Sequence record: PQ436005.1
DNA from: Escherichia phage vB_Eco_K-02
Length of the DNA stretch: 44,896 bases
Strand: one strand, 5' to 3'
Position 1 is the stretch's first letter. Every line of letters starts with the position of its first letter. This document shows, in pieces, positions 40,707 through 42,165 of the stretch. The translations under genes and the position numbers were made by a program. The notes beneath the pieces are model-generated. The model was not told the origin of the DNA. It searched no databases and worked only from the letters and a program-made list of their open reading frames with translations.

Positions 40707-41806
40707 TAATCCCCTTTCAGATAATCAGCAACACGTTTATCGAGTTCCGCCATCTGCTTAAGCGTGAGCGGATTCCCGAAACCATCTACAGATATTACGC
40801 GAAACTCTTCCGGCGATATACCGCTGTTACGGAAAATCTTACCTCGCACCGGGCCGAGCGCCTGGTCCTGAAACCACGCCGGTTGTTGTTTAAGGAACTC
40901 GTAGTAAGTGGTGTCTGCGCTTACCTGAGTGCCACCTTCCGCGCCTTTAGCCGCGCGTTTTGCGCCTTTATCGAGGAAGTCGAACTCGGAACTGATTACC
41001 GGAGCCGTGCACGACCGGCAGTTCGGATGGGCTGGGGGCATCGGCCCCTTACCAATTTCCCACGTCATCCCGTCTCTGACCCTGCAAATCGTACTGGTGC
41101 GGCTGTCAAGCGTTGACACCCACTCGTACTTCTCGATGATGTTGTCGTTCTGGCGGTACGTCTCGTTACGGGCCTCGTTGGATACGTGGGACAGCGCGGT
41201 GCGGATTACCGTAGCCGCGTTACGTTCTGAGATGTCGGCTAGTCCACCAGCGCCAACAACATTCTTAACAATCTGCCGTGTGGTTTGACCTTGCACAAAG
41301 CCCATCTTAACTCCAGTTACAAGACGTGCTACTTCCGTTTCGCCCCATCCAGACATCAGCTTGGTGAAATCAACGGGCTTGTCGCTCAATGATAATGGTT
41401 GAAACTCGGCAGCGGCCCATACCTGCTCAGCGGTAGGCGTAACAAATTCCGCGTCTACGTTGGCGGTCAGTGTCTTTACGTTCCACTCAGCCTCGTACGC
41501 CGCCAGTTCCTTAAGGTCGTCTGTTAGCTTTGTTTGCCAGTCACCCGTAATACCGGTTAGTGCTTCTTCCAGGTCGCGTAACAGTTTATTCAGTCGCGCA
41601 GTGCTGCGACCGTCGTCACCGAATAACAGCACCTGCCGTTTGATTTCATCCCTTATCTCCTGAATGAACGGCGCGAGGTCTTTCACCTCACCGGATGCGG
41701 TGCGTTGCAGCCATATCTGGTGGCTGATTAGCGATGTAAGTAAGCTCATGTGCCCTCCTGTAGTATCGCCAGTGTAACGCATAAAAATAATATTTGCAGA
41801 CACCAA
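40706..41806 (-). CDS. head morphogenesis protein (SPP1 gp7 / Mu F-like)
   Basis: Conserved C-terminal motif PPAHPNCRSCTAPV; size and position next to portal. Confidence 0.75.
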   Translation of the reverse strand: MVSANIIFMRYTGDTTGGHMSLLTSLISHQIWLQRTASGEVKDLAPFIQEIRDEIKRQVLLFGDDGRSTARLNKLLRDLEEALTGITGDWQTKLTDDLKELAAYEAEWNVKTLTANVDAEFVTPTAEQVWAAAEFQPLSLSDKPVDFTKLMSGWGETEVARLVTGVKMGFVQGQTTRQIVKNVVGAGGLADISERNAATVIRTALSHVSNEARNETYRQNDNIIEKYEWVSTLDSRTSTICRVRDGMTWEIGKGPMPPAHPNCRSCTAPVISSEFDFLDKGAKRAAKGAEGGTQVSADTTYYEFLKQQPAWFQDQALGPVRGKIFRNSGISPEEFRVISVDGFGNPLTLKQMAELDKRVADYLKGD

Positions 41807-41822
41807 TATAATAGGGTACTAT
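41794..41822 (+). promoter_or_regulatory. sigma70-like promoter with conserved box (TTGCAG-N17-TACTAT)
   Basis: -35 41794..41799, -10 41817..41822. Confidence 0.6.
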
Positions 41823-41850
41823 TCAGTTAACTTAAACAGGAGGCTGGAAA

Positions 41851-42135
41851 ATGACAAACAAATTTAAAGGTACAGACGGTGAATGGGTTAATCGCGGAAC
41901 GGCTATCTGGGCGGGGCATGTTTATGTGGCCGAGGTAATGAGTGTGCGGGAAAAGGACTCAGTAAAATTGGCTAACGCAAAACTTATCGCTTCGGCGCCA
42001 GAGTTACTTGAAGCCCTTCGCCAGCTTCGCGATTACGTTGAGGATGTTTGTGCAGTATCTCCCGAGGATTGTCATAAAGACCATCCATTAAATACAGCAA
42101 ACAGAGCAATCGAGAAAGTATTAGGGAAGAAATAA
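41851..42135 (+). CDS. hypothetical protein (moron between portal and head morphogenesis genes)
   Basis: AGGAGG SD; 94-aa ORF with own promoter and terminator on the strand opposite to flanking structural genes. Confidence 0.5.
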   Translation: MTNKFKGTDGEWVNRGTAIWAGHVYVAEVMSVREKDSVKLANAKLIASAPELLEALRQLRDYVEDVCAVSPEDCHKDHPLNTANRAIEKVLGKK

Positions 42136-42139
42136 AACT

Positions 42140-42165
42140 AAGGCCTCTTTCGAGGCCTTTTTATT
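42140..42165. terminator. bidirectional rho-independent terminator
   Basis: aaggcctc-tttc-gaggcctt then TTTTATTT. Confidence 0.8.

Follow-up and report, generated by a model that had tools for sequence, protein, structure and literature searches.

A small antisense gene between the portal and head-morphogenesis genes of a Kagunavirus as a probable exchangeable accessory cassette

The short gene that separates the portal and head-morphogenesis genes of Escherichia phage vB_Eco_K-02, here called ORF94, is probably an accessory gene that the phage can do without, an exchangeable cassette lodged in one of the late block's three antisense expression slots. The whole stretch of DNA that was analysed, referred to below as the window (PQ436005.1; 44,896 nucleotides), is a complete Kagunavirus genome, that of a virulent 45-kb siphovirus of the Guernseyvirinae. 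Its closest relative, phiEc4, shares 96.4% identity with the first 25 kb of the window, and the annotation of close relatives contains no integrase. Each slot has the same layout: a repeated box, a leader with a ribosome-binding site (RBS), the cargo, and a stereotyped GC-rich two-way terminator set directly against the stop codon of the structural gene next to it (Table 1).

ORF94 and its flanking signals

As an earlier, sequence-only reading had described, the 94-codon frame is complete and lies opposite in strand to the structural genes on either side, both of which are on the minus strand. An AGGAGG is found 7 nt ahead of its ATG. On the left, the head-morphogenesis gene starts at the ATG at 41749, which likewise has an AGGAGG ahead of it, and not at a TTG at 41806. 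ORF94 has a G+C content of 45.3%, as against 53.7% in the head-morphogenesis gene, 54.5% in the portal gene and 50.8% in the whole genome. It is a genuine gene under purifying selection, because dN/dS is 0.10-0.25 relative to homologs at 88-89% nucleotide identity and exactly the same protein is encoded on three further metagenome contigs, in unchanged position. No paralog or second copy of the family was found in the window or in phiEc4. The cassette had no match in complete E. coli genomes, and it is therefore not a common prophage gene at an identity of at least 85%. A published Kagunavirus RNA-seq study with coarse, multi-cycle time points does not cover the ORF94 locus (PMC12645636).

Table 1. 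Coordinates of ORF94, its neighbours and related features in the window
Feature	Position	Strand	Remarks
Repressor-like gene, 71 aa	10074-10289 (region 10074..10380)	-	DicA-like per phiEc4 record; two boxes in divergent control region
Third antisense island, late region	30412..32903	+	Box 30412-30430; terminator of same type 32872-32903; gene names from phiEc4 annotation
Slot 2, between Rz spanin and Hoc-like gene	39647..40228	+	Box 39647-39665; hairpin 40201-40228
33-aa ORF, slot 2	39690-39791	+	Window ORF
114-aa lipoprotein-like ORF, slot 2	39788-40132	+	Window ORF
Head-morphogenesis gene, left flank, 347 aa	40706..41749	-	Mu F-like / SPP1 gp7-like; PF04233 (Phage_Mu_F) E 1e-12; phrog_241 E 4e-154
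-35-like hexamer TTGCAG	41794..41799	+	17 nt upstream of TACTAT; slot-specific
Conserved box TATAATAGGGTACTATTCA	41807..41825	+	8 copies in window; putative promoter with embedded operator; left recombination joint (putative)
5' leader GTTAACTTAAACAGGAGG...	41826..41850	+	Read from sequence; contains RBS AGGAGG, 41838-41843
ORF94	41851..42135	+	ATG 41851, TAA 42133-42135; 94 aa; phrog_1273/PF27050
Two-way intrinsic terminator (predicted)	42140..42164	.	Stem 42140-42147 / 42152-42159, loop TTTC, T-run 42160-42164; right recombination joint (putative)
Portal gene, right flank	42165..43637	-	DUF4055 E 1.6e-24; phrog_145 E 2.9e-147

The conserved box noticed ahead of ORF94 in the first reading proved to be strongly over-represented: with up to three mismatches allowed, TATAATAGGGTACTATTCA occurs in eight copies in the window, compared with 0.02 expected from shuffles. 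It contains a perfect TATAAT (41807-41812), a candidate -10 element TACTAT (41817-41822) and the palindrome AATAG-N4-CTATT (41810-41823). A TTGCAC or TTGCAG is present upstream at identical spacing in five of the eight boxes, and six are followed on the same strand, within about 25-45 nt, by an RBS and an ATG. The same element had been picked up by PHIRE as a repeat in Kagunavirus fBC-Eco01, with a matching consensus (PMC9825357). Judged from sequence, the box is the predicted general promoter element of the phage. Either TACTAT or TATAAT could serve as the -10 of the ORF94 copy. By consensus this copy is weak, which counts against the model: TTGCAG agrees with only three of the six consensus positions, and for this reason a strict sigma-70 scan did not report it. 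Two of the boxes (10318-10336 and 10362-10380) lie in the control region of a 71-aa repressor-like gene, whose product is the candidate binder of the box palindrome; its naming as a repressor is taken from the phiEc4 record, and the helix-turn-helix is that of the annotation only.

At the other end of the gene, the hairpin AAGGCCTC-TTTC-GAGGCCTT (42140-42159) has a terminator-like score on both strands. Folding gave -20.8 and -20.7 kcal/mol (z of -4.65 and -4.83), and none of 200 shuffles was as stable. The stem comprises 8 bp, five of them G-C, and forms, with its U-run, the GC-rich stem and U-run of a rho-independent terminator. In the rightward direction it is followed directly by UUUUUAUUU (TTTTTATTT), as in a canonical intrinsic terminator, and the T-run ends at 42164, against the portal stop (TTA on the plus strand, 42165-42167). 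The claim of a strong two-way terminator abutting that stop is thus upheld. Leftward, the tail of the hairpin is AGUUUUAUUU; on the minus strand the tail is AGTTTTATTT (42139-42130). That the leftward late transcript would need antitermination or separate late promoters is a reasonable inference; an equally open explanation is that the predicted terminator may be leaky in this direction, since its leftward tail is AGUUUUAUUU. A strict scan found no leftward promoter upstream of the head-morphogenesis gene, and inspection by eye gave weak candidates only. An Rfam scan of 39300-42400 gave no match above chance. Nearly all loaded slots keep the stem, which is also conserved across genera, and the loops vary; one compensatory stem variant was found among the relatives (GGCCTC/GAGGCC versus GGCCCC/GGGGCC).

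Slot occupancy and cassette exchange

The site between the portal and head-morphogenesis genes (slot 1) differs widely among relatives. In phiEc4, which lacks ORF94 here, just 69 nt separate the two genes. Of 42 close relatives, 25 (phiEc4 and 24 others) have an empty slot with a gap of 65-72 nt and 17 a loaded one with a gap of 285-1473 nt, the cargo being antisense in every case. Further out, some relatives have no spacing at all between the two genes (a gap of 0 nt). About a dozen unrelated kinds of cargo occupy the slot, including an N6_N4 DNA methylase (E 2e-28), a D12 methylase, a Vut_1/YhhQ protein paired with a queuine-tRNA-ribosyltransferase-like (DpdA-like) protein (phrog_887, E 3e-84), a KilA-N protein, a CapR-domain protein and about ten small proteins of unknown function. 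The surroundings of these cargos are far more uniform. A left module of roughly 92 nt is 87-100% identical across about a dozen cargo kinds, the terminator AAGGCCCC-loop-GGGGCCTT is common to about a dozen unrelated cargos, and the box stands at slot position 58 in 15 of the 17 loaded Kagunavirus slots. The leader of ORF94 is likewise common to other slot-1 cargos. Even the empty 69-nt slot retains a box-like remnant, TTAATAGCATACTAT, beside the hairpin AAAGCCCCTTTCGGGGCT, followed leftward by TTTCTTAT.

The late region contains three antisense islands, each with a box and then a terminator; stereotyped hairpins number five in all (families D6 and D13). Slots 1 and 2, which are 1.6 kb apart, have cargo in common. 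The ORF94 cassette is found, at 90% nucleotide identity, in slot 2 of two relatives (L068 and L055) in which slot 1 is empty. When the slot-1 and slot-2 versions are aligned, homology starts inside the box and stops at or just after the hairpin, such that the leader moves with the cassette and the -35 region remains with the slot rather than travelling with the cargo. Two other cargos behave in the same manner, making three in all: a 173-aa protein gene occupies slot 1 in three loci and slot 2 in eight (98.9% nucleotide identity between L003 and L031), and the YhhQ/DpdA-like pair occupies slot 1 in L030 and slot 2 in L164.

These results suggest a model whereby cassettes would move when one repeated box recombines with another and one repeated terminator with another, in a PeSL-like manner (see below). 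Such exchange is deduced from the breakpoints, and illegitimate recombination or homing would be alternative routes. The box would act as a promoter for the host sigma-70 polymerase, by way of either TTGCAG-17-TACTAT or the perfect TATAAT, and its palindrome may be the operator bound by a repressor of the phage, the 71-aa protein being the probable one. If the box were controlled in this way, ORF94 would be switched together with the non-structural genes that bear a box, and not with the head genes that surround it. The terminator would chiefly shield the portal gene from antisense read-through.

The ORF94 family and competing readings

By sequence comparison ORF94 is a predicted full-length member of PF27050/phrog_1273. 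It matches the phrog_1273 profile over residues 2-93 (E 6.5e-17), and PF27050 (Phage_P22_Y8K6) is recorded for an identical protein (P0001) and for all 120 homologs among the matches listed; its PF27050 membership is that of the identical protein's record rather than a score at the curated cut-off. The family is very large, with 21,380 clusters (50% identity) matching its profile at E<=1e-3. Conserved in ORF94 are an N-terminal G-x-x-G-x-W strand, a NAxLIA(A/S)APELLEAL helix and a C-terminal AIxK(A/V)LG. The ends of the family are conserved and the middle, a beta-meander, is hypervariable, residues 13-44 having no invariant or nearly invariant column. The protein is 10.4 kDa and has no hydrophobic segment; its pI of 6.8 argues against action as a DNA mimic. 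An AlphaFold2 model (pLDDT 89.3) has a three-strand beta-meander (residues 12-28) and three helices.

The remote-homology and structure searches that had been proposed as a route to the role of ORF94 did not provide one, there being no match to any characterised protein. Searches of PDB sequences with the ORF94 protein and with the family profile returned chance-level matches only, Pfam, NCBIfam and PADLOC scans of ORF94 gave no usable match, and neither sequence nor fold similarity to characterised anti-defence or defence proteins was found. A link to Ead/Ea22-like proteins, suspected from a similar motif, was rejected (hhalign probability of 0.4% against P22 EaD). Literature searches on PF27050, phrog_1273, the LIAAAPELLEAL motif and orf78 of P22 yielded no information about function.

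The founder of the family is orf78 of P22, which sits between ral and gene 17 in the early-left operon. It matches the family with an hhalign probability of 96%, although just in the C-terminal helical half (columns 64-119). Unlike P22 orf78, ORF94 is a solo cassette lying antisense in a head operon. Relatives of ORF94 are found in a P22-like early-left operon after N, adjoining ParB, and, in an integrated element, as three tandem copies between a methylase and Prim-Pol. Among 150 neighbouring genes surveyed with Pfam, Kil, methylases, RecT, ParB and MazG turned up, typical of early or accessory regions, with no fixed partner gene, and the longer members of the family carry no informative partner domain in fusion.

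Judged from location and neighbours alone, an anti-defence or host-interaction role for ORF94, as first suggested, is plausible. The most likely role, which we offer tentatively, would be that of a small soluble protein that binds a host or defence protein in early infection. A more specific version, in which ORF94 is an early counter-defence protein, for example an inhibitor of restriction, of an Old-type system or of other host immunity, is possible but rather unlikely. In its favour, slot cargos elsewhere include DNA methylases and the 7-deazaguanine-type pair, the P22 member lies next to ral, tandem paralogs adjoin a methylase, and a hypervariable middle lies between conserved ends. Kagunaviruses are, moreover, reported to be highly sensitive to restriction-modification systems and variably so to Old (PMC11990801). 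However, the protein resembles no characterised anti-defence protein or solved structure, its pI is neutral, and location in the slot is weak evidence because most slot cargos are small proteins of unknown function.

The exchange data also bear on the description of ORF94 as a moron, which stands in part. The architecture is indeed that of a single-gene insertion: an antisense frame, absent from between the same genes in phiEc4, bracketed by a promoter-like site and a terminator, with a G+C of 45% against 54% in the flanks. Yet it is doubtful that this is a classical moron, that is, a foreign gene inserted between two late genes together with a promoter and a terminator that it had brought along. 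Both signals are present in the sequence, but they are not ORF94's own: the same promoter module and terminator accompany about a dozen unrelated cargos and recur in two other islands, which assigns them to the backbone of the phage or to its shuffling system. The box itself is an element that this phage repeats elsewhere in its genome, the -35 region stays behind when the cassette moves, and relatives of ORF94 elsewhere sit inside operons without a flanking box and terminator.

The persistence of a box-like remnant and hairpin in the empty slot, and the conservation of the terminator stem across genera, raise the question of whether the regulatory cassette itself is the functional unit. The terminator, with or without the box, might set the ratio of portal to downstream head-gene transcripts or insulate the late operon, the cargo being incidental. 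We consider this improbable. Purifying selection on ORF94 and the very large size of its family indicate that the cargo is not incidental, and the 0-nt gap in some more distant relatives indicates that the slot element is not required.

Finally, a role in virion assembly is unlikely. ORF94 is not a conserved structural component, a finding that the sequence-only reading had named as one that would refute its moron proposal. The idea that ORF94 lies here because it acts with the portal and head-morphogenesis proteins, as an accessory of head assembly or of the virion, for which position in the head gene cluster is the sole point in favour, deserves very little credence given the opposite strand, a promoter of the type found at non-structural genes, absence from 25 of 42 close relatives, the same cassette in slot 2 and the early operons in which relatives lie in other phages.

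Significance and comparison with known systems

The preferred reading of ORF94 as an exchangeable accessory gene makes it an ordinary phage add-on gene; it is the exchange between slots that is unusually clear. The slots amount to a natural experiment: on Kagunavirus backbones that are almost the same, two defined sites are either empty or filled by ORF94 or by one of about a dozen further cargos, so that effects of the cargo on host range and defence evasion are directly comparable. They also resemble ready insertion sites, promoter and terminator included, for the engineering of small therapeutic-type phages. The function of PF27050, a family of more than 21,000 clusters at 50% identity, could be approached in practice through either of two tractable members: ORF94, dispensable and carried by a virulent E. 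coli phage, or orf78 of the classical model phage P22. As a bolder and doubtful extension, the three slots might be an integron-like platform through which virulent Guernseyvirinae trade early-expressed counter-defence cassettes by recombination at the 19-nt box and the terminator, with PF27050 as a very large, unrecognised family of counter-defence binders whose hypervariable beta-meander sets target specificity.

Morons, a concept of Juhala, Hendrix and colleagues, are known from lambdoid and other tailed phages. ORF94 is like them in being an extra gene between genes that are adjacent in relatives, bracketed by promoter and terminator and deviating in base composition. It differs in that the promoter and terminator are backbone elements serving many cargos and several slots, and in that the Kagunavirus carrying it is virulent, which leaves no prophage from which it could be expressed. 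Accessory hotspots between conserved core genes of phages have been mined for anti-defence genes, and slot 1 resembles these in being a fixed site amid core genes with variable cargo that includes DNA-modification genes. In contrast to such hotspots, one set of repeated regulatory signals defines a pair of neighbouring Kagunavirus sites, between which identical cassettes are exchanged.

A further parallel is the PeSL (promoter-early stem-loop) of T4-type phages, a class of mobile regulatory cassettes (Arbiol et al. 2010, PMC2839356; Comeau et al. 2014, PMC4122927). In these, repeated sigma-70-like promoters coupled to stem-loop terminators border genes of unknown function, and a small number lie within virion modules. 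The insertions, deletions and replacements by which close relatives differ coincide with the motifs, and exchange is ascribed to recombination between them (PMC2839356, PMC4122927). The Kagunavirus slots differ in several respects. The host is a 45-kb siphovirus, not a T4-type myovirus with hyperplastic regions; promoter and terminator, both predicted from sequence here, stand at opposite ends of the cargo and are adjacent only in the empty slot; and the box has an operator-like palindrome. The likenesses are nevertheless considerable, with a repeated sigma-70-like motif (eight boxes) and stem-loop terminators (five hairpins) around variable genes, breakpoints at box and hairpin, and three cargos present in both slots. 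Since the window is that of a Kagunavirus siphovirus, the slots are better described as PeSL-like in their working than as members of the PeSL family.

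Anatomy of the ORF94 locus

The genome of vB_Eco_K-02 is complete at about 44.9 kb and is that of a Kagunavirus (Guernseyvirinae; small virulent siphoviruses of E. coli). Over its first 25 kb it shares 96.4% identity with Escherichia phage vB_EcoS-phiEc4 (phiEc4), and the region around the 94-aa ORF (ORF94) matches other Kagunavirus records. In the phiEc4 annotation, which is oriented like the window, the structural genes from terminase to tailspike run leftward on the minus strand and the replication genes run rightward. A perfect 77-bp tandem duplication (4893-5046; two 100% identical copies) lies in the leftward early ORFs; since 77 is not divisible by three, it shifts the frame relative to the single 441-nt gene annotated at the equivalent position of phiEc4, and it could be real or an assembly artefact.

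A sequence-only reading had taken ORF94 for a single-gene moron, opposite in strand to the flanking structural genes and equipped with its own promoter and terminator. All the elements that it described are found in the window (see table). The box ahead of ORF94 occurs in eight copies (up to three mismatches allowed) against 0.02 expected, and the bidirectional hairpin is strong, with a folding energy of about -20.8 kcal/mol on each strand (z below -4.6) and the final base of its T-run immediately adjoining the portal stop codon. ORF94 itself is under purifying selection (dN/dS = 0.10-0.25).

Features of the ORF94 locus
Feature	Position	Strand	Details
ORF94	ATG 41851, stop 42133-42135	+	94 aa; AGGAGG 7 nt 5' of ATG
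Left neighbour, Mu-F-like head-morphogenesis gene	40706-41749, true start ATG 41749	-	own AGGAGG; PF04233; phrog_241, E 4e-154
Right neighbour, portal gene	42165-43637, 3' of ORF94	-	DUF4055; phrog_145, E 2.9e-147
Box TATAATAGGGTACTATTCA	41807-41825	+	repeated motif
Hairpin terminator	42140-42159	both	terminator scoring on each strand; about -20.8 kcal/mol

The box has already been reported in Kagunavirus fBC-Eco01, where PHIRE gave the consensus tgAATAGTa-ccTATTat-T and it was credited to a phage RNA polymerase (PMC9825357). The annotation of phiEc4, a close relative, lists no RNA polymerase gene. Together with its upstream hexamer, the box looks like a host sigma-70 promoter. TTGCAC/G stands at a constant distance from it in five copies (TTGCAG-17 nt-TACTAT at ORF94), and a ribosome-binding site and ATG follow within about 25-45 nt at six. 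At a second class of sites, consensus promoters (TTGACA-17-TATAGT) preceding rightward genes have the same palindrome within their spacer. We infer that the box is a sigma-70 promoter whose palindrome, AATAG-N4-CTATT, overlapping the candidate -10, would act as an operator, bound probably by a 71-aa repressor-like protein (10074-10289) encoded between two boxes; ORF94 would then be expressed together with non-structural genes. The surrounding stretch (10074-10410), where this protein, a DicA-like repressor according to the phiEc4 annotation, sits between two boxes with starts 44 bp apart, also contains a rightward consensus promoter, TTGACA-17-TATAGT, whose spacer includes the palindrome. In a phage regarded as virulent, this arrangement resembles a small genetic switch.

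Read rightward, the terminator is canonical; read leftward, its U-run is interrupted. This would fit a main role in stopping antisense transcription into the portal gene. Late transcription heading leftward may cross the site by leakage, by antitermination or by a fresh start.

Contents and signals of the slots

For comparison, 74 related loci were fetched from IMG/VR with the head-morphogenesis protein, plus GenBank hits, and the gap between this gene and the portal gene (slot 1) was measured from portal stop to head-morphogenesis start. The gap is only 69 nt in phiEc4. Among 42 close relatives (head-morphogenesis protein at least 90% identical), it is empty in 25 (65-72 nt) and loaded in 17 (285-1473 nt); in more distant relatives it ranges from 0 to 1112 nt. 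Since slot 1 is often empty or filled with other cargo, ORF94 is dispensable and not a conserved structural component, in keeping with the moron reading.

Loaded slots carry very diverse cargo, whose main ORFs nearly always lie antisense to the structural genes. Besides uncharacterised small proteins (55-122 aa), these ORFs encode a 173-aa protein annotated inconsistently between records, an N6/N4 DNA methylase, a D12 methylase, a YhhQ-like transporter paired with a queuine-tRNA-ribosyltransferase-like protein, KilA-N proteins and a CapR-domain protein. Public annotations of slot 1 are unreliable (PQ571290 EF2-1, OM272052 and OR594180): the ORF94 homolog of EF2-1 is labelled 'Efflux RND transporter permease subunit', and the 173-aa protein is a 'DNA polymerase III sliding clamp' in one record and a 'RusA-like Holliday junction resolvase' in another, its only Pfam match being sub-threshold (DNA_pol3_beta_2, E 0.006). 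SHAK7693 is filed taxonomically under Autographiviridae.

The empty allele, found in 25 loci, differs in sequence from the loaded one and is no simple deletion; it retains a box-like remnant, TTAATAGCATACTAT, with a hairpin, AAAGCCCCTTTCGGGGCT, 5 nt away and TTTCTTAT leftward of the hairpin. One locus (L074) has an 'empty-type' left end followed by KilA-N cargo. In three others (L055, L057 and L058) the match to the head-morphogenesis protein ends at residue 244; the L055 ORF has 630 aa versus 347, which suggests an insertion within the structural gene, for example an intein or homing element.

Nearly all loaded Kagunavirus slots open with the same left module of about 92 nt, made up of the head-gene ribosome-binding site, TTGCAG, the box at slot position 58 and a leader with a ribosome-binding site, and 87-100% identical to the window irrespective of cargo. 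Similarly, AAGGCCCC-loop-GGGGCCTT against the portal stop closes nearly all loaded slots, Jerseyvirus-like relatives included, with variable loops and one compensatory stem variant. The same box and terminator type surround two more rightward islands in the leftward late block (30412-32903 and 39647-40228). Both the putative promoter and the terminator are part of the slot system, not of ORF94. The moron reading is thus upheld as to architecture, but the signals are not ORF94's own, since unrelated cargos and other islands share them.

The island at 30412-32903, within the tail gene block, has a box with 0 mismatches, the same terminator type and, according to phiEc4, genes for a superinfection immunity protein, a calcineurin-like phosphoesterase, an acid phosphatase and a hypothetical protein. 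That at 39647-40228, between the Rz spanin and Hoc-like genes (slot 2), has the same box upstream, a 33-aa ORF (39690-39791), a 114-aa ORF (39788-40132; phrog_13472) and a hairpin terminator against the Hoc-like gene. The 114-aa product opens with MKYIKLAVAGVVAVCLSGC, a stretch resembling a lipoprotein signal that includes a lipobox.

Two direct copies of a noncoding element (about 155 nt) are present, the first within the early divergent control region (6817-6972) and the second in the left flank of slot 2 (39420-39575). The second is 95-100% identical over about 40 Kagunavirus loci and 85-91% in two more, and had no Rfam match. The consensus fold of eight sequences is a long hairpin in which five pairs are changed on both sides (e.g. 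GGAC/GTCC versus GTGC/GCAC). The element may be a structured RNA or regulatory site, and could bear on read-through of late-region terminators.

The ORF94 protein and its possible role

As a protein ORF94 is unexceptional, and its family, though catalogued, is uncharacterised. ORF94 matches phrog_1273 (E 6.5e-17), and PF27050 (Phage_P22_Y8K6), a model newer than the Pfam copy searched, is recorded in databases for an identical protein and for 120 of the 120 homologs listed. A family profile search returned 21,380 clusters at 50% identity (E<=1e-3). Most members stand alone and are 90-110 aa long, and tandem duplications occur occasionally; the member in phage P22 is orf78 (hhalign probability 96%), in the early-left operon between ral and gene 17. 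The family alignment is conserved at the N-terminus (F5, G7, G10 and W12) and in the helical C-terminal half (L45 to G92), and residues 13-44, variable in both length and sequence, hold no conserved column. In a confident AlphaFold2 model (pLDDT 89.3), the variable part forms a three-strand beta-meander, and three helices come after it. The protein has a neutral pI of 6.8 and lacks any hydrophobic segment. At the nucleotide level the 3' half of the gene, but not the 5' half, is 85-86% identical to genes in Salmonella phages of a different genus.

The neighbours of ORF94 relatives are typical early or accessory surroundings. In a P22-like phage the relative lies in the early-left operon after N, and in Salmonella and Shigella siphoviruses relatives adjoin a ParB-like gene. 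The 150 neighbouring genes surveyed included Kil, methylases, RecT, ParB, a PAPS-reductase domain and MazG, with no constant partner among them. One 2.7-Mb bacterial contig (L082) has three adjacent PF27050 genes (4996-7075), two internally duplicated, between methylase-like and Prim-Pol genes; the setting, which includes TraG and HTH_17 genes, looks like an integrated mobile element.

Our best guess, a tentative one, is that ORF94 might be a host- or defence-directed binding protein: it is dispensable, its promoter is of an early type and its middle is hypervariable, and its neighbours and the DNA-modification cargos in the same slots point the same way. Kagunaviruses are reportedly highly sensitive to restriction-modification systems (PMC11990801), which gives selection grounds to act on such slots.

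Cassette movement between slots

The most informative result is an exchange of cassettes between the two slots. A nucleotide search with ORF94 over all fetched loci found full-length copies (90% identity) in L068 and L055, where slot 1 is empty and the copy sits in slot 2, preceded by a box about 25 nt 5' of the gene start and followed by a terminator that abuts the Hoc-like stop. When the slot 1 and slot 2 copies are aligned, similarity begins within the box (CCAAyATAATAGGGTACTATTCA), spans leader, ORF and hairpin, and ends directly past the hairpin; beyond these breakpoints each copy matches the flanks of its own slot, including a slot-specific -35 region. Slot 2 varies as much as slot 1, from 317-343 nt where the box is missing to 2389 nt, and the box position is fixed in loaded Kagunavirus slots. 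Two further cargos are likewise found in both: three loci carry the 173-aa gene in slot 1 and eight carry it in slot 2 (one pair at 98.9% nucleotide identity), and the YhhQ/DpdA-like pair lies in slot 1 of one locus (L030) and slot 2 of another (L164), whose slot 1 holds ORF94. Three cargos in two slots, with breakpoints at repeated signals, point to movement by box-box and terminator-terminator recombination. In T4-type phages, the promoter/stem-loop cassettes known as PeSL have been described as behaving in this way (PMC2839356); the Kagunavirus slots belong to a different phage group and have a different layout.
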